In this document: positions 4,461 through 21,593 of the stretch, one piece after another
Numbering within the stretch: position 1 is the stretch's first letter
How the letters are laid out: each line of letters opens with the position of its first letter
From: a virus
Taxonomy: Duplodnaviria; Caudoviricetes
Length of the DNA stretch: 32,635 bases
IMG/VR virus record: IMGVR_UViG_3300016667_000229
Coordinates: 1 to 32,635 of that record
Direction: 5' to 3' (one strand)
The notes under the pieces: generated by a model
Seen by the model: only the letters and a program-made list of their open reading frames with translations
What the model was told of the DNA's origin: nothing
Databases searched by the model: none
Made by a program: the position numbers and the translations under genes

Positions 4461-6125
4461 TTACCTCCTGTAGAAATTATTGATTACGGATTGTCGCTTT
4501 CGGTCGGTCTTTCCACCTTGACCGTAATAGCGATCTCCCATGAGAAGCTGGATACGGTTATTGCCCATCCAGTCCTTGACCATGTTCTTGTGATCCTTCT
4601 CCTGATTGCGCTGGACAAGACGGTCCTGATCGATGACCATCTCCTGCGACCAATGCCTGACGGCACTGGCTAGGATATCGATTCGGTCATCGTGCTTCAG
4701 GGCACCGCGTTTGTCCTGCATCCTTGTGAGCTGCATCTGGTTCTCCTTGTTGGAGATCACCTTTGCATCCATCACAAGCCGATGCTGCGCCATCACGGGT
4801 TCAAGGACATCCAGGATGCGCCGTTCCTTTGAACCGCTTACCCTGAACTCCTCGATTGATGTCTTGTTCTTGCATACGGTCAGCGATACTGGCCGCAATA
4901 GCGAGGCAAACATGCCATCGCCGTAGTTTGATTCGACGTATATGCGCCGTGCTCCGTGAAGATCCGCAAGTCTGCAGATCCTGGACAGGGTGGTCTGATC
5001 ATAACCACCCTCGAATCCAGTCAGTTCCTTGCAAACAAGATAGCCATTCACAAACGACATGACGCATACCGCTGTCTCGTCGGCACCTCTGCCAGACGGG
5101 TCAACGAACATGATGGTCTCGGTATACTCCACCATTGTTGGTGAAGTCCACATGGGACCATAGCAGAAATCGTTGTTCAACCCGAATGATGGAAGCTTCA
5201 GAGGAGTTCCCCTGGCCCATGTCACCTTCTCGGGGAATACATCGGATGGCACATCCATCACGATCAGATCCTCGAGTCGCAGCGGAAACTTCGCTGCATC
5301 TGACATGGTAGGGTCAAGCAGATAGTGCAGGGCAAAGTGACGTGGACCGATCTTTGCCAACCGTTCCTCAAGCACATGCTGGGGGAATCGTTGCGGATCA
5401 ACCGTGTGTCCTGGATCTACATCCAACGACATGATGTACTCATCCACGTTCTCAACCTGCGACTCGATCATTGGATCTGGCATGACGGCGGGAAACTTGA
5501 TGATTGGATATGGCAGTCGTAGATAGATTGAATCAGTGCTTTGGTATGTACCAAGGAACAGGATTCGTCCGTGTGGAACTGGGTTGCGAATCTGCTCCAG
5601 TTCAGCCAACCGCTCAATCAGTCTTGATCTGGCAGTGGGGTTGTCGCTGTTCTTCTCGATCTCCACGTCATCCAGCAGAACATAGTCCGCGTGGCTACCC
5701 GTGATCTGACCAGTGACACCCTTGGCATAGCAGGATAGATCCTGTCCGATCTTACCGCGATTACCAACATTGAAGCCCCAAGCCGAATCCTTATCAAATT
5801 CCTTGGGCAACAGTTCTGCCATGTATGGTACTACGGTGAGGATCTGACGGACCTGGGAGATGAACTTGATTGCCCTGTCCGCTCCTGCCGAGATGACCAG
5901 TACCGTGGTATCTGGATCCCGTAGAAGCAGCCACGAAGCGTAGCAAGCCATGATGGTGGATTTACCAGCTCCGCGTCCAGCCTGAAGCTGAAAGTCTCTG
6001 GGTCCATTCTGAATCTTATCTGCAATGGCATACTGGAGTGGGCTTGGTTCGCCCAGTCCAAGATACTTGAAGCAGAAGAAGATGTGGTTTCTGAAGTCTT
6101 CAAGGACTTCCTGTGGTGCGTTCAT
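4461..6125 (-). CDS. terL: Terminase large subunit (T7 gp19-like)
   Basis: Walker A LQAGRGAGKS, GQITGSHADYVLLDDVE (Walker B), nuclease motifs FVDPSGRGADET, ESNYGDGMF and HDDRID, all characteristic of T7-like TerL. Confidence 0.96.
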   Translation of the reverse strand: MNAPQEVLEDFRNHIFFCFKYLGLGEPSPLQYAIADKIQNGPRDFQLQAGRGAGKSTIMACYASWLLLRDPDTTVLVISAGADRAIKFISQVRQILTVVPYMAELLPKEFDKDSAWGFNVGNRGKIGQDLSCYAKGVTGQITGSHADYVLLDDVEIEKNSDNPTARSRLIERLAELEQIRNPVPHGRILFLGTYQSTDSIYLRLPYPIIKFPAVMPDPMIESQVENVDEYIMSLDVDPGHTVDPQRFPQHVLEERLAKIGPRHFALHYLLDPTMSDAAKFPLRLEDLIVMDVPSDVFPEKVTWARGTPLKLPSFGLNNDFCYGPMWTSPTMVEYTETIMFVDPSGRGADETAVCVMSFVNGYLVCKELTGFEGGYDQTTLSRICRLADLHGARRIYVESNYGDGMFASLLRPVSLTVCKNKTSIEEFRVSGSKERRILDVLEPVMAQHRLVMDAKVISNKENQMQLTRMQDKRGALKHDDRIDILASAVRHWSQEMVIDQDRLVQRNQEKDHKNMVKDWMGNNRIQLLMGDRYYGQGGKTDRKRQSVINNFYRR

Positions 6126-6135
6126 TTATTTCCTT

Positions 6136-6198
6136 TCAGCAAATGGCAGTGCGTCGCATGCCAGTGCAAATTCTAAGTCTTGACCAAAGAAACAGCAT
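6136..6198 (-). CDS. Possible 20-aa leader peptide MLFLWSRLRICTGMRRTAIC
   Basis: Strong SD AAGGAGG 5 nt before ATG 6198; TGA stop abuts the terL SD (TGAAAGGAAATAAATG). Confidence 0.4.
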   Translation of the reverse strand: MLFLWSRLRICTGMRRTAIC

Positions 6199-6212
6199 GT
6201 GTTCCTCCTTTG

Positions 6213-6247
6213 AAAAAATCCCCCACAGGCCCATCGACCTGTGGGGG
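6213..6247 (-). terminator. Intrinsic terminator between terS and terL
   Basis: Minus strand CCCCCACAGG-tcgatggg-CCTGTGGGGG-ATTTTTT: perfect 10-bp GC-rich stem followed by a U-tract. Confidence 0.85.
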
Positions 6248-6380
6248 CGTAGCGAAATTCCATCGATGAATTGCCCGATGGTAGGCAGCCGTAATGTCCC
6301 ATGAAATTTCTTCCATGGGCGGCAGCGTATATCCCCCATGCCAATCAAGGCATGTCTATGCGGGGATAGTTCCGTGATTA
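6248..6380 (-). ncRNA. Candidate structured RNA (copy A), three hairpins upstream of the terminator
   Basis: Hairpins at 6330-6368 (TATCCCC/bulge/CATGCC-TTGATT-GGCATG/GGGGATA), 6288-6323 (GCCG-CCCATGGAA-GAAA-TTTCATGGG-bulge-CGGC) and 6260-6281 (CCATCG-loop-CGATGG); almost the whole intergenic region is paired. Confidence 0.6.
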
Positions 6381-6578
6381 TGCCTTCTTTAGTTTGAAGG
6401 GAACGATGGCCTCGAGTGTCTCGGCCTTGACTGGAATGGCGTTTGCCTCTGCAGCCTTGTTGTCGTTCACAACCCGTGCAACGACCTGATACAGACCAGG
6501 GCCGCGCTTCTCGGGATCCATGAGATCCTCGATGAGGCAGTCGATCAGCAGGTCATTGAGATCGTTGATTCGTGCCAT
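6378..6578 (-). CDS. terS: Terminase small subunit (T7 gp18-like)
   Basis: DLMDPEKRGPGLYQVV resembles the T7 gp18 core (DLSDHERRSPQLYNAI, from memory); small size; directly upstream of terL. Confidence 0.85.
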   Translation of the reverse strand: MARINDLNDLLIDCLIEDLMDPEKRGPGLYQVVARVVNDNKAAEANAIPVKAETLEAIVPFKLKKA

Positions 6579-8263: not shown

Positions 8264-8514
8264 TCACCCTCCTTATGTTTTGCCATCAGCAGGGTGAGTG
8301 TCTGCAGTTGGTTTCTTAGTTCATGTATGTTTCTATCAAGTCGATCAATTCGTTCCTTGATGGCGTCCTTTTCGATTTCAGAAACTTTTTCGTATGAAGC
8401 AATATGCGATTCAAGTCTTGTTTCGATGGCTGAACACCTTTTACCAAGAATCCATGTTGAATATACAGCTGAACCAACCACTGAAATTACCATTGAAATA
8501 GTGTTAAAATCCAT
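8260..8514 (-). CDS. 84-aa membrane-anchored coiled-coil protein (holin/spanin-associated candidate)
   Basis: N-terminal hydrophobic segment (ISMVISVVGSAVYSTWILG) followed by heptad-like coiled coil; overlaps both neighbours (TAATG and ATGA). Confidence 0.7.
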   Translation of the reverse strand: MDFNTISMVISVVGSAVYSTWILGKRCSAIETRLESHIASYEKVSEIEKDAIKERIDRLDRNIHELRNQLQTLTLLMAKHKEGE

Positions 8515-11500
8515 TAGTATTGGGTCTCCGCATAAATCTGTGAGACATCAAACGCAGGAGCAGATGAAGTGCTTGTGTTGTTTCCTCTGATTATTTGAAC
8601 ACCCAAACCTACGGTATTTCTTGGAAGATCGGTAGTAAGAGTTCCGCTGGTATTTGCACCAGTTGAGATGTTTGTTACTTCGTAGTAAATTGCGGTATCG
8701 TTTGGCTTTGCAAACAAAATCAATTCCATGAAACTGGTGTTATCAACTGGAAAGCTTGCACCAAGTGATGTCATTGTTGCAGTTCCAGTATTGTCATTTG
8801 AACCAATGGACCAAACGGTAGCACCATCAATTGCATATAGACCAACGGAATCTGCCAATGACTCTACATTGAATGAAGTGGTGTTGGCCATTGCCGTAAG
8901 TGTTGTGCTTAGACCAACAAATGCTTCTCCACCTGTGTTCAGCGTGGCATCGCTGATTGCAAACCTGAATAGAACATAGAAACCACCAAGAGAACCTGAG
9001 TTACCTCTCCAGCAGAATAGACCACTGTTTGGAGAACGCATCTGTGCCCAGGATTGAGCTGCTGATGTTGTAGCCACATATGCATGTCTTGTGATGGTTG
9101 ACAGCAGGTTTGTTGTTGCAAAGTTCCTAGCTGTTATGGTTCCAACCGTTGTAAAGGCAGGAAAACCAAAGACACCAGCAACTGCGTTTGTGTTGGATGC
9201 GTTGTAGATTCTGACTTTGTTCTTTGCAAGGCATACCTGCAGGTTAGAAACAAACCCACTTTCATCCTTGAATGCAAGTTGTTCTCTATTAGCATATGTA
9301 ATAGGGTACAACACAAGTTCATTTGATGATGGAGTTGATGGGGCAGAACCAGGTTTGATAAGCTTTAGGTTTCCACCAGCTTCAATAGCAACTTGAGAAG
9401 CACCTGCAATAACCAGATTTGAATCATTGAACTGAACTTGTCTATCAGAGCCACCAGGAGAGGCAGATCCTCCAGTATTATCCGTTCCAGGTTCCCAAAC
9501 CGCACTGATGTTGTTCCACTTTAGAACCTGACCAGAGGTTGCTCCACCCTGTGCGATTCTGGCCAAAGCAAGAGAACCAGATGTAATATCCGAAGCACTG
9601 TGGGTATGGCTTGTTGAAGCCTTGCCAGCTAGGTCAGTTACAAGATTTGTAATATCAGACTGAGCATGGGTGTGGCTTGTTGAAGCCTTACCAGCTAGGT
9701 CGGTTACCAGATTGGTAATGTCCGACTGAGCATGGGTATGCGATGGAAGATCCGAACCAGTGGCAATACTAAGGACACCAGTTCCAGCTGTTGTGGTATT
9801 CTTCAAGATACCAGTGGCAAGGGATCCAAGTGACTGTTCGTTAGTAAGCGTTCCATCGGATGTCTGTACGATGTAGGTTGCTCCGACTGGAGCACCACCG
9901 CTTGCAGTGGCACTGATGGTCATGGTGCTTCCATCGATGACGATTCCAGAACCAGCCGTATAGTAGTCACCCACACCAGTATCATCGAATCCAACCAAAC
10001 TATTGGTCGTTGATTGATTGCTTAGTTTCACTGGAGTAATCGAGCTGTTTGCCAGTTTGGCGTTGGTGACGGACAGTGCGGTTATTTCCGACGTTCCTAC
10101 TGTGTTCAATGTTGCCAGCGTGCCGAAACCAGCCGTGGTCTTTGTCATGTTCTTCCATACACCAGTGGCATTGTCCCACGCAAGGAGATCCTTGTCGGCT
10201 GGTGTCGATGGAATACTGACGTTGTGCAGTTCGTTCAACTCGTATCCGTTGTCTATCTTGACGTAGATCCGTCCAGCTGAACCAGATGATGTTGACATGA
10301 CCCAGCCAATAACAACACCGTGTGCTGGTGCGGTTGGACGGGTTCTTGTGAACTCTCCAGCCGTCTCGGACAACCACAGAAGGTCGCCATTTACAAGCGG
10401 TGTGTCGATTCCAGTCAGGTTGGTGAGTACACCCTGGGTTATGATGAACCCATCTGCGCTGTCTGCAATTGACTCGGCTGTTATACCTATGGTTGATGCC
10501 GATGTCGATTCATCGGTTGCATCTGCCAAGGCAACCGTAAGGTTGTCACCAAGCGATCCAGTGATCCTTACCACCTTGCCCTTGGCAATGGTGGATCCAG
10601 TATTGTTCCTGACCAGTTTCATCACCGCTTGATTGAGCGAAGAACTGTATGTTCCAGTAGTTACTGTTGCATCACTTATTGTTCCACCAGTGATGGCAAC
10701 AGCCGAGGCATCCTGAGTGGCCATCGTCCCAAGGCCAAGTGTAGTTCTCATGGCCGAGGTGGATGTGTCATCCAGCAATGTCCGCGCCGTGGATGTCAGT
10801 GGGGTGGTCGTGAATGTATCCGAACCAGTTGCATAGATCACGGTATCAGCTGAAGTGGTTACACCTGCCAATGCAGTAAGGGTTGCATCCTGTGCTGGAA
10901 CATCGATTACCATTGTATTTGCGGCTTCATCAAGGGTCAGTGTTGCCTGACCAGTAGCGGATGGAATCAGGGTTCTAGTGACCCCAGAGTCGGCATTCCA
11001 CCATACGAGCCTGCTTGTTGCCTGTTGGGCTGGGGGTGGTTGAATGGAATTGTAGGAAAGTGTATAACCGCTCAGCCAGCCAGTTCTACTGATATTCACC
11101 CACTTTGAGGTTGCCACATTCCATGTAAGGATATCGTTGCCGACAATGCTGGTCAATACCACATCGGATAGTTCTGATAGGGCTGCCGATGTAGTCGTTG
11201 CCGTTTCCTTTGATGCAAGCATGACACCAGGTGTCACACATGAATCTTGAAGCAGACGAATTACCTCGAGACTGTTTGTCCTGACAACCGATGCCGTGGT
11301 AGAGGTTGCAAGGTGACGGACGTGAAGTCCAGTGTAGGCTGTTGTGGTGGCATCATTTGAACCATACAGGGTGTTCTCGGTCTCGGCCACGATGGCACCG
11401 TCGACATAGAACACGGCCTTGGTTCCCTGATCGCAGATCACAACCTGAAGGGTATGCTCGTCCGTGATAAGGAAGTCCGTATCAAATCCGAAGGTTTCCT

Positions 11501-13664
11501 CGTAGTAGATATCAGGTAGGGCATAGACATCGGGCTCATGCCATACCGCACATCTCCAGGTGTTCCCAGTTGGCGAGGTGATGAATCCGACCATTCTCTG
11601 CAGTGAACCACCCACATCAATCGGATCCCAACTTGCCTGTGCGTGGGTAATGAACGCACCGACGATGCAGTACATGTCGGTAGGATCCCAGGTATTGATC
11701 TGCCCGTTCCACTTGACGATCAGGTCGTTGTCGAGGCTGTCATAATCAGCCAGTGCACCTTGGTGAAGCCACCATCGGTCATTGTCCGCTCCACTTGTGG
11801 TGGTCAGCAGGTATCCATTGGTGTAGTCGAAGTACTCGGGGTGATTCTGTGAACCAGCTCCTATATTGCTGGTTCGCCATGTAAAATTCCCGTATGAGGT
11901 TCCATCCATGTACAGGTGTTCAAGGATATCGGTAGCTCCTGTAGCCGTTGCTGGTCCCCACGCAGATCCGTTCCATGTAAGAACCTGATTTGTCGTGGCT
12001 GAGCCCTGATTGATGTCGGTATAGGAGTGAGTGTGGCTTGAAGCAGCCTTACCTGCCAGATCAGATACCAGGTTGGTAATGTCTGATTGTGCGTGAGTGT
12101 GGCTTGAAGCAGCCTTGCCTGCTAGGTCAGACACCAGGTTGGTGATATCAGACTGGGCATGGGTATGGCTTTCTGGTACAGTGATGGTGAAGGTATTTGC
12201 CGTGTTGTCGTGAGACGCAGAGGCAAGACCAGCACCGTTAAGGGTGACTGTTCTTAGAAGACCAGTATCGTTATTCCACCAGATTAGCCTACCGCTTACC
12301 TGTTGTCCAGCTGCTAGTGTAGTTTGAGTAATGGAGTGAGAGTGAAAGTTAGCCAGTGATGATGCTGGTGTATTTATCCAATCAGAGGCTCCCTTGATCA
12401 GGATATCATTGATTGCTACTGAAGTAAGTGTGATATCATCAAGACCAGCAAGCGTGGTGCTGACTGTTCCTGGTGCCCACTCGGTACCATCAAAGATCAA
12501 CGCCTGACCTGTAGTTGCGCCGCCATCATCAAGTGTATCAAGCGGAAGCAACCTATCGGCATTCAGCGTTGCGATTCCATTCGGTCCATCCAGCATGTCG
12601 TGGATAAGTTCATATCCAAGACCAACTGCACCATCCACGTAATTCTTGGTTGCCGCGTCAGTCATGACGGTTGGTTCGGCCAGATCCAATTCAGCTTGGG
12701 TAATGACGGGCATTCCCCAGGTCTGGTTTCCAAGAAGAACATATCCAGCCTGTGGATCGTTGGTGGCAAACAGCTCGTTCGGAAGCTTGCCATTGATATC
12801 CAGTCCAGCAATTCCCTGGGGTTGATTGCGTCTATCCAGGAAGTAGTTCTCGACCACGCCACCAGCAATCGGCTCGATTGTTCCAGTTGTGATGGTCCAA
12901 TTTGAGTCTGGATCAATAACCGTGATTTCGTTCTTGGTACCCGCCGTTACTCCAGAGCCTCCACCACCTGTTGGTGCTGGTGCGTTTACCCACGCAGTTC
13001 CATTGAACTGCAGGATTTCCGTATTTGCTGGAGCAGTGAGAGTAACATTTGTGATATCCTCCAGGGCAAAGGTCTGCGCTGGAATATCGAGGTTTACCCA
13101 TTGTTCCAGTCCAGCATCCCATGTGAGGACCTGTCCATCCTGCGGTGCTTCCACAGGGTAGTCGACATCGCCAAGCTGCTGCATGACAACGGTGCTCATC
13201 TTCAGCACACCGACAGGGACAAGATCCGCCCAGAAGTTCACACCATCGCCAATTCTGATTTCATTGGTCGTGGTGTCGTATCCGATTTCGCCATTGTCAA
13301 GGATGGTGGATGTTGCCGCCCATCCGACAGTGGTGTCTCTTCGGACCTGCATGACTTGACCAGCCGTGTCGGCGGAACCGCCATCCAGCGGTCCTTGGTC
13401 AATCTTTTGATTGATAAGCGTAACAAGTGTAGGATCAAGGGACCATGTTGCACCACTATCGGTTACAACAATGTCTCCCTTGTCTCCATCAGCTACCGTT
13501 CCGCTTCCAATCGGAGTGAGATCAAGCCATGCACTTGATCCATCTCCTACTCTGATCTCTTTGTTTGTAAGATCATACGAGATCTCTCCCAACGAGAGAG
13601 TCGGATTTACCGACTCCCAGCTTGCATAGGAGTCTCGTCTGATCTTGATGATGTCATAAGCCAT
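8514..13664 (-). CDS. Long modular tail fibre / receptor-binding protein (1716 aa)
   Basis: Two Mtd_N-like N-terminal modules (IKIRRD..W...NPTL..GEI.YD......RVGDG), repeated GQVLTWNG..W motifs, HTH-type fibre repeats, DAATKNYVD, beta-sandwich-like internal and C-terminal domains; SD AGGAG. Confidence 0.9.
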   Translation of the reverse strand: MAYDIIKIRRDSYASWESVNPTLSLGEISYDLTNKEIRVGDGSSAWLDLTPIGSGTVADGDKGDIVVTDSGATWSLDPTLVTLINQKIDQGPLDGGSADTAGQVMQVRRDTTVGWAATSTILDNGEIGYDTTTNEIRIGDGVNFWADLVPVGVLKMSTVVMQQLGDVDYPVEAPQDGQVLTWDAGLEQWVNLDIPAQTFALEDITNVTLTAPANTEILQFNGTAWVNAPAPTGGGGSGVTAGTKNEITVIDPDSNWTITTGTIEPIAGGVVENYFLDRRNQPQGIAGLDINGKLPNELFATNDPQAGYVLLGNQTWGMPVITQAELDLAEPTVMTDAATKNYVDGAVGLGYELIHDMLDGPNGIATLNADRLLPLDTLDDGGATTGQALIFDGTEWAPGTVSTTLAGLDDITLTSVAINDILIKGASDWINTPASSLANFHSHSITQTTLAAGQQVSGRLIWWNNDTGLLRTVTLNGAGLASASHDNTANTFTITVPESHTHAQSDITNLVSDLAGKAASSHTHAQSDITNLVSDLAGKAASSHTHSYTDINQGSATTNQVLTWNGSAWGPATATGATDILEHLYMDGTSYGNFTWRTSNIGAGSQNHPEYFDYTNGYLLTTTSGADNDRWWLHQGALADYDSLDNDLIVKWNGQINTWDPTDMYCIVGAFITHAQASWDPIDVGGSLQRMVGFITSPTGNTWRCAVWHEPDVYALPDIYYEETFGFDTDFLITDEHTLQVVICDQGTKAVFYVDGAIVAETENTLYGSNDATTTAYTGLHVRHLATSTTASVVRTNSLEVIRLLQDSCVTPGVMLASKETATTTSAALSELSDVVLTSIVGNDILTWNVATSKWVNISRTGWLSGYTLSYNSIQPPPAQQATSRLVWWNADSGVTRTLIPSATGQATLTLDEAANTMVIDVPAQDATLTALAGVTTSADTVIYATGSDTFTTTPLTSTARTLLDDTSTSAMRTTLGLGTMATQDASAVAITGGTISDATVTTGTYSSSLNQAVMKLVRNNTGSTIAKGKVVRITGSLGDNLTVALADATDESTSASTIGITAESIADSADGFIITQGVLTNLTGIDTPLVNGDLLWLSETAGEFTRTRPTAPAHGVVIGWVMSTSSGSAGRIYVKIDNGYELNELHNVSIPSTPADKDLLAWDNATGVWKNMTKTTAGFGTLATLNTVGTSEITALSVTNAKLANSSITPVKLSNQSTTNSLVGFDDTGVGDYYTAGSGIVIDGSTMTISATASGGAPVGATYIVQTSDGTLTNEQSLGSLATGILKNTTTAGTGVLSIATGSDLPSHTHAQSDITNLVTDLAGKASTSHTHAQSDITNLVTDLAGKASTSHTHSASDITSGSLALARIAQGGATSGQVLKWNNISAVWEPGTDNTGGSASPGGSDRQVQFNDSNLVIAGASQVAIEAGGNLKLIKPGSAPSTPSSNELVLYPITYANREQLAFKDESGFVSNLQVCLAKNKVRIYNASNTNAVAGVFGFPAFTTVGTITARNFATTNLLSTITRHAYVATTSAAQSWAQMRSPNSGLFCWRGNSGSLGGFYVLFRFAISDATLNTGGEAFVGLSTTLTAMANTTSFNVESLADSVGLYAIDGATVWSIGSNDNTGTATMTSLGASFPVDNTSFMELILFAKPNDTAIYYEVTNISTGANTSGTLTTDLPRNTVGLGVQIIRGNNTSTSSAPAFDVSQIYAETQY
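9600..9740 (-). repeat. 66-bp tandem repeat (2 units plus partial) encoding HTHAQSDITNLVTDLAGKASTS
   Basis: Visible in DNA and protein; resembles the His-x-His phage tail repeat. Confidence 0.9.
12027..12167 (-). repeat. 66-bp tandem repeat (2 units plus partial) encoding HTHAQSDITNLVSDLAGKAASS
   Basis: Second block of the same repeat, about 2.4 kb from the first, with synonymous divergence. Confidence 0.9.
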
Positions 13665-20086: not shown

Positions 20087-20123
20087 AAAAAAAACCTCCT
20101 CCCCCCGTTAGGGAAGAGGAGGC
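20087..20123 (-). terminator. Intrinsic terminator after major capsid gene (T-phi equivalent)
   Basis: Minus strand CCTCCTCTTCCC-taac-GGGGGGAGGAGG-TTTTTTTT: 12-bp stem with two G-U pairs and 8 U. Confidence 0.92.
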
Positions 20124-20237
20124 TATACGACCGCAGCACGTAGCTACGGAAGAGATTGAGGATCACCGCAACCTTTCTGGCTAGAGTCTTTGCGAAATCA
20201 ATCGAAAGAATCAGACTCCACTTACACCTATTGATTA
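20124..20237 (-). ncRNA. Candidate structured RNA (copy B) between capsid stop and terminator
   Basis: Hairpin 20182-20220 (TGGAGTCT/bulge/TTCGA-TTGATT-TCGCAA/AGACTCTA), short GCC-AGAAA-GGT hairpin, CCGTAGC-TACGT-GCTGCGG hairpin; shares loop motifs with 6248-6380. Confidence 0.5.
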
Positions 20238-21593
20238 GGCGTATGGGAAGGTGCCAGAAGCAGTTGGGATGCACTCGCGGGTCATGCCGAGACGGGTGCG
20301 GAGCATTGCACGGGCCATGCCTGCTTCGGCTCCACCAGTATTAGCAGCGTCGACCTGTGCAAAGACAGCGACAGCGGAGGTGAAGAGGAAGCCACCACCC
20401 TGACCCCATGTGGTATCGGCGTCGGTGTTCGCGGTGGTTGGACCAACGAGAACGGCAGCGAGTTCTGGGCGAAGAACACCAGTACCGCTGAGCATGGATG
20501 CGACGGTGAAGGTCGTGTTGCGACGGATGTCGTTTACGGTATCGACCTTGAGACCCTGCATCTTGAGGGATGCAACGCAGCCAGCCTGGAAGAGCAGACC
20601 AACAATACCAGCGTCATCGAATGGCAGATTGTAACGAGACTCACCAATGGTGTTGACATCGGCATCGAAGACGGGAAGGTGGTTGCTCTTGATGATCTTG
20701 ACACCCATGTACTCGAGTGAGTCGGTGAGCTTGTTGAGACCCTGATTGAGGGACGCACCAAGACCGCCAGCTTCTGCAACACCGCCAAACATTGGCTGCA
20801 TGTTGACCGCGTAGGTCGTGGAGCTGCCGCTGTAGACAATATCGGTGGAACGTGCAACGCCAAGGGCGCGGATGTCCTGGAAGGCGCGTGGGGTCACGGC
20901 GAGATACACGCCATCGGTTGGCGCGTTGATCTGCTGGAGGTAGACCATGAAGTCCTCGCAAGCCTGCAGGGCGGTGAGAGCAGCGGTTGCTCTGTTGGCC
21001 TGTGAGGCGGCTGGATCGATGATCGCACCAAGGTTCTTGAAGTTGGCCGAGATGAACACTGGGCCGCATGGAACAGCGCGTGGATCGTTGCTGGTGGTCG
21101 AGCTACCAGCAGCATCGGTACCTGACCAAGTGAGGTCTTCGCAAGCAGCGCGTGCGATGTACGCAGCGATCTGCTTGTCTCTCGCGTTGGCGAGGGTCAT
21201 ACCCGCCTGACGGGCGAGCTCCGAGCGGAACTCCCACTGAGAGACCATGAGGTCGATGTTGTCGATCTCGAAGTGCGCCGCAATTGGACGGGCATCGAGC
21301 TTGATTGCGATGGTGGTCGAAGTCGAATCACCGCCGTAGAGTTCCTGACCAGCCTGCCATGCAGTCTTCAGGGCCACGGTACCAGTGATTGGGAATTCCC
21401 ACGCCACGCCACCAGTCAGGGTCTTGCTCGTGACGAGAGACTCGAACATGTTGGTGTGATCGTAGGCGTTGATGACCTCACCCGACCAGAGTGAGAGCCA
21501 GAGCTTTTCCGCACCAGCGGCAGCGCCTGCTGGGTGAGCGGTGAGTGATGAGCGGTATGCGAGATCGCCAGTTGCTAGATCTGGATATGCCAT
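20235..21593 (-). CDS. Major capsid protein (T7 gp10-like), 452 aa
   Basis: LWLSLWSGEVINAY, KTLTGG..WEFPITG, RSELARQAGMTLA..RD, GVKIIKSNHLP, GTGVLRPELA; strongly biased codon use; followed by terminator. Confidence 0.95.
   Translation of the reverse strand: MAYPDLATGDLAYRSSLTAHPAGAAAGAEKLWLSLWSGEVINAYDHTNMFESLVTSKTLTGGVAWEFPITGTVALKTAWQAGQELYGGDSTSTTIAIKLDARPIAAHFEIDNIDLMVSQWEFRSELARQAGMTLANARDKQIAAYIARAACEDLTWSGTDAAGSSTTSNDPRAVPCGPVFISANFKNLGAIIDPAASQANRATAALTALQACEDFMVYLQQINAPTDGVYLAVTPRAFQDIRALGVARSTDIVYSGSSTTYAVNMQPMFGGVAEAGGLGASLNQGLNKLTDSLEYMGVKIIKSNHLPVFDADVNTIGESRYNLPFDDAGIVGLLFQAGCVASLKMQGLKVDTVNDIRRNTTFTVASMLSGTGVLRPELAAVLVGPTTANTDADTTWGQGGGFLFTSAVAVFAQVDAANTGGAEAGMARAMLRTRLGMTRECIPTASGTFPYA

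Follow-up and report, generated by a model that had tools for sequence, protein, structure and literature searches.

Two unrelated conserved RNAs among the late genes of an uncultured T7-like podophage, with segments complementary to ribosomal RNA

The late genes of an uncultured T7-like podophage include two conserved folded RNAs, here called A and B, which are unrelated and not homologous to each other. Element A lies behind the small terminase gene (terS), and its conserved bases are complementary to helices 68-71 of 23S rRNA beyond what shuffled sequences give, and this on the strand that is structured. Element B lies behind the capsid gene and is complementary to the tail of 16S rRNA. The simplest account of both elements is probably a pairing with the rRNA of the host. 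The preliminary description of this DNA, which presented the two regions as twins, had missed the property that they do have in common, an invariant segment that is complementary to host rRNA.

The window, i.e. the whole stretch of 32,635 nucleotides that was analysed, corresponds to the late half of the phage genome, and almost all of its genes are on the minus strand. The late genes are, in listed order, those of an exonuclease, a class II ribonucleotide reductase, the head-tail connector, the scaffold, the capsid, the tail proteins, terS and the large terminase (terL). The terL of the nearest cultured relative is about 40% identical to that of the window; a complete relative of 67.7 kb (G029), with a terL 74% identical, encodes a single-subunit RNA polymerase. 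The gene identities proposed earlier hold, those of terL and of the major head protein by PHROGs and that of terS weakly, by a Pfam match below the cut-off and by position; in 151 of the 169 loci collected, a profile of terS relatives finds terS ahead of terL. Region A extends from the terS stop (6378) to terL (6125), and region B from the capsid stop (20235) to the first tail gene (20061), with the following features:

4461..6125, minus strand: terL (554 aa), PHROG 38, E 2.7e-100
6136..6211, minus strand: strong Shine-Dalgarno sequence (6204-6211) and 20-codon ORF (6136-6198) inserted ahead of terL; only the window and L193 have the start of this ORF
6200..6377, minus strand: element A, an RNA of several hairpins that starts at the terS stop codon and is in parts complementary to 23S helices 68-71 (z -5.6)
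6213..6247, minus strand: last hairpin of A, P5 (6220-6247, 12 bp), and U run (6213-6218)
6249..6261, minus strand: segment III of A (GGAATTTCGCTAC), which is exactly complementary to 23S 1930-1942 and whose core is retained even in minimal copies
6274..6281, minus strand: segment IIb of A, complementary to 23S about 1893-1899, which may alternatively form a pseudoknot with 6231-6236 (top of the last hairpin)
6284..6326, minus strand: helix P2 of A, closing a variable hairpin (6298-6319); its 3' strand is segment II (6284-6294), complementary to 23S 1903-1913
6331..6367, minus strand: helix P1 of A, in which the CATAG bulge (6356-6360) is invariant and the inner hairpin varies (TTGATT loop at 6343-6348, unconserved)
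6378..6578, minus strand: terS (66 aa), weak match to Pfam PF11123 (DNA_Packaging_2), E 0.0088, below the cut-off, plus position
20087..20234, minus strand: element B, a structured 3' region starting at the capsid stop codon, with a start-less complement of the 16S tail followed by a terminator (z -4.8)
20087..20122, minus strand: intrinsic terminator of B behind the capsid gene; a terminal hairpin is present in the 40 distinct capsid 3' regions
20131..20156, minus strand: conserved ATCT(C) of B (20152-20156), which can fold back on the core, followed by an optional variable hairpin (20131-20149)
20160..20178, minus strand: core of B, consisting of AGAAAGG, a 4-base bulge and GGTGATCC, complementary to the last ~16 bases of 16S rRNA
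20235..21593, minus strand: major capsid (major head) protein gene, PHROG 267, E 1.2e-29

In most relatives, terL begins directly at the spot where the window has the 20-codon ORF. The window and L193, which share this ORF, also have the longest U run behind the last hairpin of A. In four other loci (L215, L142, L203 and L136), terL aligns from an ATC codon located behind a strong ribosome site, which is possibly a non-standard start. Several further observations were made on the window and its relatives. The window encodes a 1716-aa tail fibre (8514-13664, minus strand) with Mtd_N and PTR repeats and with 66-base repeats at 9534-9806 and 12027-12233. The capsid gene is found twice, at both record ends, in one relative (G042; L288 and L299), and in several distant ones (G043, G044 and G045) the capsid match consists of two separate pieces. 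Small genes near the terminase in eight related loci (L237:2670-2999, L231, L249, L178, L184, L190, L223 and L103:679-1212) have products that terminate in (I/V)PGPG followed by a hydrophobic stretch and basic residues; we take these tails to resemble the PEP-CTERM sorting tail, and those of the eight loci have no NCBIfam or Pfam match.

The preliminary description had drawn the twin relation from motifs and loops shared by the two regions. All of these motifs are found where it placed them on the minus strand, i.e. TTGATT at 6343-6348 and 20196-20201, GCTACG at 6248-6253 and 20139-20144, AGAAA at 6307-6311 and 20174-20178, and CAAT at 6270-6273 and 20155-20158, and the stop contexts read GCA-TAA-TCA and GCC-TAA-TCA as claimed. 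Both regions do contain structured RNA, the fold beating all 200 shuffles in each case (z -5.6 for A and -4.8 for B), and each is conserved in relatives with compensatory changes (15/26 pairs in A, 16/25 in B). The twin relation itself does not survive: a covariance model of A (14 sequences) reaches B in the window through the terminal hairpin only (E 0.34), and a model of B (9 sequences) likewise reaches A through the terminal hairpin of A only (E 2.8). Nor are the shared loops conserved among relatives, where TTGATT is present in 2/22 A and 1/31 B regions and AGAAA in 4/22 and 9/31, respectively; the corresponding counts are 14/22 versus 0/31 for GCTACG and 12/22 versus 7/31 for CAAT. TTGATT has 13 occurrences on the minus strand of the window. 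The GCTACG of A is the end of its anti-23S segment, and the AGAAA of B is the start of its anti-16S-tail segment.

No tRNA, ribozyme or riboswitch had been recognised earlier, in agreement with Rfam 15, which has no family for A or B. A scan of the window with Rfam 15 gave no family at gathering score and one chance match elsewhere (E 0.81), the Rfam scan of nine related loci gave no family, and ARAGORN found no tRNA or tmRNA. Likenesses to hammerhead, hairpin, HDV-like and ZTP RNAs and to group I/II introns, which had been judged by eye, were dropped because Rfam finds none of them.

Full-length copies of A comprise helix P1 with its CATAG bulge, helix P2 round one or two variable hairpins, a GGGC-containing middle, an open segment III and a last hairpin of 12-14 bp. 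The covariation of A was evaluated on a MAFFT alignment of 14 of the 23 full-length copies, and its score is reached by 0/500 shuffles. The covariance model recovers longer variants that the alignment had left out and gives a single strong match in each of four near-complete relatives. Within P5, compensatory change affects 9 of the 12 pairs. The mRNA strand folds better than the opposite one in 23/23 full copies and in 25/26 last hairpins, with 73 G-U pairs against 14. CATAG, present in 23/23 full-length copies, is mostly open (mean unpaired probability 0.84), and segment III has a mean unpaired value of 0.62 (48 copies). Segment II is mostly paired internally, its core being unpaired at 0.13 and its 5' flank at 0.81, and the value for IIb is 0.29. 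The pseudoknot between IIb and P5 is partly supported, with 88% of cells paired and compensatory change in 2/6 pairs. The word CGCTA occurs twice in A, each time ahead of a helix.

Both regions had also been described as ending in a terminator, and in the window each does have a hairpin followed by a U run. This arrangement is conserved for B but not for A, since a U run of at least 5 follows the last hairpin in only 3/23 full-length copies and is particular to the lineage of the window; this hairpin is therefore not a conserved terminator. No promoter proper to A or B was found, the window has no promoter-like repeat, and a sigma-70 scan gave no match in A or B. One relative (G005; L316-L319) has a repeat, TTGGGGCTATA(GA), with six coding-strand copies at 1458, 25977, 41202, 47407, 56946 and 63603, which is a candidate promoter for a phage polymerase; no copy lies near A. 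Of three sequencing runs considered, which are probably of DNA, one contains a relative less than 90% alike.

The complementarity to rRNA was evaluated against the 16S and 23S sequences of E. coli rrnB, and the test was chosen after the likeness of the core to 23S had been noticed, i.e. post hoc. Positions 6249-6261 of the window are the exact complement (13/13) of 23S 1930-1942, which is the longest anti-23S match in the whole window. Globally, A is complementary to helices 68-71 through two stretches, 1893-1913 (segments II and IIb, 6274-6294) and 1930-1942 (segment III). Among 39 clusters of terS 3' regions, perfect matches of at least 9 bases pile up at 23S 1930-1937 (11 clusters); elsewhere, outside 1929-1957, no site has more than 4 clusters. 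A profile of A, built from a MAFFT alignment (A3) without reference to rRNA, finds its two best matches on both strands of 16S and 23S at antisense 23S 1914-1872 (E 0.013) and 1954-1930 (E 0.05). Its best match is equalled by 1/300 shuffles and the pair by 0/300.

The short core is not significant alone: the 9-base core is found in 78/2000 shuffled rRNA sets (3.9%) and the word of the helix-71 loop in 73/2000, and the coding DNA of relatives also holds chance anti-rRNA matches of 13-14 bases. Furthermore, with rRNA taken as unfolded, 23S 1920-1945 is the best site for a 22-base window round segment III in only 10/26 variants, other 23S sites giving similar duplex energies for 16/26. Outside the anchor positions, which were set by the search words, the bases of A are mostly wobble-compatible, with C28/T1 of 29 opposite G1930, A19/G9/T1 opposite U1939, C11/T4/A1 of 16 opposite G1910 and C13/T2/A1 opposite G1903. 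Purine-pyrimidine flips affect 8/12 P5 pairs versus 0/8 pairs whose strands carry an rRNA match. Segments II and IIb are mostly paired internally, with covariation between IIb and the P5 loop, and these pairings within A can account for their wobble pattern. The anti-23S case is carried by several adjacent matches, by minimal forms that keep only the match, and by element B.

The distribution of A was established from 169 terL loci, many of them redundant; the 151 with terS gave 88 distinct 3' regions, the 18 without a terS match being left out. The core TCGCTAC is present behind terS in 22/22 distinct regions whose terL is at least 60% identical (window included), in 12/25 at 55-60% and in 12/41 below 55%. 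The 23 full-length copies all have helix P1 and the CATAG bulge. In a terL tree of 49 dereplicated rows, A is full in 16, minimal in 8 and absent in 25, including close sisters of carriers. The minimal forms, found in three lineages, have kept the anti-23S core, 6-22 bases behind the stop codon, and dropped the remainder. In two of them, the match continues beyond its other end, over 23S 1927-1937 (1925-1937 in the distant L185/L237 lineage). The L185/L237 lineage also adds, on a variable stem, a 9-base hairpin loop matching 23S 1949-1957, and its anti-23S pieces are out of rDNA order. In one lineage, where terS is located 670-1100 bases from terL, A remains at the terS stop, and the gene downstream of A varies between lineages.

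Pattern scans of viral contigs retrieved 41 matches, including 7 true copies before terL, then 12 matches, including 6 true ones, and in a third scan 84 matches, 8 of which are the L185/L237 lineage, the others being unrelated. The scan of bacterial genomes retrieved 15 matches, all of which look like chance, and A is therefore found only in this phage clade. Two groups of sequences without A deserve mention. In L336:801-827 and 37 similar loci from large phages, unrelated to A, the strand opposite the pattern match adjoins a tRNA-like sequence and, by eye, we take it to look like an HDV-like (theta) ribozyme. In the terS 3' regions of a sister lineage (L252, L257, L258 and L250), there is no core, but a hairpin and the word TCAGGCTACCC are kept, and three of the four have an 11-base match to 23S 272-282.

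The core of B, i.e. GTGAT(C/T), a short spacer and TCT before the terminator, is found in 32/40 distinct capsid 3' regions, and GTGAT is invariant in the corresponding alignment (A4). The full GGAGGTGATC, a complement of the 16S tail, is present in 9/40; in the window, this complement is split by a 4-base bulge. The predicted duplex of the window core with a planctomycete 16S tail reaches -22.1 kcal/mol; values for B range from -14.4 to -29.0 kcal/mol and are stronger than that of the ribosome site of the next gene in 23/23 distinct cases. The core is often buried (unpaired 0.03-0.64), and none of the 32 cores is followed by an ATG. The possibility that it is the ribosome site of an extended tail protein was rejected, GTG being in frame with the tail gene in only 4/32 regions, window included. 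In 7/32 regions (L276, L285, L288, L299, L056, L048 and L296), the core is preceded by a mini-ORF of 5-10 codons that has a ribosome site of its own and ends at the core or shortly before it; six of the seven end just at the core. The terminator of B is presumably the positional equivalent of T-phi of T7.

The bases of A also give a hint about the host. CATAG mismatches E. coli 23S at position 1918, but with a G at this position the helix 69 loop (1914-1918) is fully complementary to it; a C lies opposite 1918 in 23/23 A copies. G1918 is found in 76/81 matched genomes (201 searched) from the phylum of a Phycisphaerales genome, and A1918 in 40/40 matched genomes (61 searched) from the phylum of Kaistia (phylum names are presumed). 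Planctomycete variants are also a better fit than E. coli for the bases of A opposite 1899, 1902 and 1938: opposite 1899, A has C17/T6 and planctomycete 23S has G in 15/26; opposite 1938, A has C in 10/48 copies and planctomycete 23S has G in 12/26. Compared with 26 planctomycete fragments, the profile of A scores 8 above E. coli and 18 below, and the median duplex energy of segment II is the same for planctomycetes as for other bacteria; only a subset of planctomycetes is favoured by the scores of the whole profile and by the duplex energies.

The comparison covered two phyla plus a few single genomes. It leads to the prediction, from sequence, that the host is a planctomycete, the independent host tests being blank. 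Indeed, the terL profile gave no host signal in GTDB contigs and nothing in 99 genomes of the order of G059, the capsid protein gave a single distant match (31%) in 401 genomes of the phylum of G059, and the PEP-CTERM-like tail was absent from the two planctomycete genomes searched for it. As a separate observation, two planctomycete 23S genes (L436 and L453) are interrupted just behind the junction of helices 69 and 70, probably by introns.

Given the complementarity of A to the 23S core and of B to the 16S tail, the phage likely uses RNA to grip the ribosomal subunits of its host. The helix 69-71 face of the 50S subunit forms subunit bridges, so that pairing of A with this face would block joining; as it is buried in the 70S ribosome, the likely partner of A is the free or immature 50S subunit. 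Helix/loop 70 is reported to be required for subunit association (PMC5408214). Element A would dock through its open parts, i.e. segment III, the CATAG bulge and the bases before segment II, and would then give up P2 and the IIb-P5 pseudoknot, both weak internal pairings, in exchange for rRNA helices 68-70, while B would hold the 30S subunit without initiation. We give an even chance to the proposal that A pairs with free or immature 50S and blocks joining and that B holds 30S without starting translation. The outcome, which is the least certain part, could be that, late in infection, the translation of the host and the maturation of its ribosomes are damped, or that re-initiation on the gene behind terS is throttled. 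A and B may also give 3'-derived small RNAs, as had been suggested earlier. A more elaborate version can be put forward only tentatively: a planctomycete phage would use its two late RNAs as a matched pair of ribosome factors, A being a switch that would unzip 50S helices 68-71 through up to four host-tuned contacts and B a clamp on the 16S tail, and together they would control joining as an RNA counterpart of protein anti-association factors.

Among the alternatives, we consider it rather unlikely that A is a cis structure or protein site (a TerS operator, a processing or stability signal, or a packaging RNA), with an rRNA likeness that would be a relic of captured rDNA or chance, and that B is an ordinary terminator region. 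This would suit the constant location of A behind the terS stop, its rich internal pairing, including the covarying pseudoknot, the two CGCTA words placed before helices and the insignificance of the short core alone. However, the pair of profile matches is unequalled in 300 shuffles, and a 16S complement is independently maintained in B. Decay would be expected of a relic, but the minimal copies retain exactly the antisense core, lengthened on one side or the other, with pieces out of rDNA order in the L185/L237 lineage. Furthermore, the absence of A from 25/49 lineages that have the same terS-terL module argues against an essential packaging role.

It is improbable that A and B shield the ribosome from sequence-specific host ribonucleases that would abort infection. 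Their targets are both cut sites of MazF-mt3, helix/loop 70 and the anti-Shine-Dalgarno sequence (PMC5408214), and segment III of the window covers 1939-1942. However, the minimal L185/L237 copies pair at 1925-1937 and miss the UUCCU site, B of the window type has a bulge facing the middle of the 16S tail, and pairing at the subunit face would itself be expected to hinder function.

A purely cis-acting role as tethers, which would hold the subunits released at the terS and capsid stops close to the late mRNA and increase re-initiation at the gene that follows, seems quite improbable. Both elements do follow a stop codon closely (at 6-22 bases in minimal A), and the mini-ORFs with a ribosome site ahead of the B core (7/32, six ending just at the core) could be understood in this way. 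However, the terminator behind B implies that most transcripts stop before the next gene, the gene behind A differs between lineages, and we know of no 50S tether of such a sort.

We regard it as very unlikely that the functional molecule is the opposite strand, as an rRNA mimic or decoy, or the DNA itself, as an integration core or the target of a homing nuclease in the 23S gene, even though the plus strand reads as 23S 1930-1942 and the two planctomycete 23S genes mentioned above (L436 and L453) are interrupted at the same place. Folding, loop types and the number of G-U pairs all point to the mRNA strand (23/23 and 25/26), and the variants are wobble-compatible in the antisense direction; as for a DNA site, no close prophage was found in GTDB contigs, in 99 genomes of the order of G059 or in 401 of its phylum, and no integrase was found among the 33 of 101 G029 ORFs scanned. 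Lastly, that A and B are two copies of one put-like antiterminator, as previously suggested from two folded 3' regions that end in a hairpin and share short words in the window genome, is scarcely credible, its homology part being refuted by the failed cross-searches and the unconserved words and nothing having been found in support of the remainder: put acts on the host RNA polymerase, near a promoter, whereas a close relative (G029) encodes its own single-subunit enzyme.

Returning to rRNA pairing, if A binds the 50S subunit, it would represent an undescribed phage route to take over or shut down translation. The full and minimal forms of A would then constitute a ready-made series of mutants for ribosome binding, and the fit to lineage-specific rRNA bases would predict the hosts of uncultured phages, here planctomycetes.

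Various known systems share some properties with A and B. Shine-Dalgarno and extended Shine-Dalgarno sites are likewise mRNA segments complementary to rRNA, B being an extended complement of the 16S tail; however, B is devoid of a start codon and precedes a terminator, and A targets large-subunit rRNA at the subunit face with up to four segments. The TURBS of caliciviruses are also rRNA-complementary segments of mRNA and act round a stop codon. Antisense RNAs of the CopA/CopT and OxyS type have, like A and B, short open seeds or loops and an internal pairing exchangeable for the target, but the predicted target of A and B is rRNA and not mRNA, and both lie in late polycistronic transcripts. 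Position is shared with T-phi of T7, a terminator after the capsid gene, and with its RNase III site R18.5, a structure after terS. The pRNA of phi29 is an essential part of the packaging motor and forms rings through loop-loop pairing; complementary loops exist in A too, but A is absent in 25/49 lineages and these phages have a protein terS. To our knowledge, none of T-phi, R18.5, pRNA and HK022 put has an invariant rRNA complement.

A literature search outside subscription journals retrieved no natural RNA described as controlling bacterial ribosomes by 23S pairing at the subunit face. In a large phage RNA catalogue (PMC10690425), four motifs were absent from six supplementary files; files 1, 2 and 4, which are not among these six, may hold the family as an unnamed candidate. 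The same terS-terL locus gives rise to the cabRNA of staphylococcal phages, a 400-base or <50-base piece of the terS-terL coding genes that is sensed by a host cyclase, of the CBASS type, and is reported to have no sequence homology between phages (PMC10686824); A agrees with it in the locus only, being intergenic, conserved and covarying, with an rRNA-complementary core. Set beside all these systems, A and B are probably rRNA-pairing RNAs of an undescribed kind.
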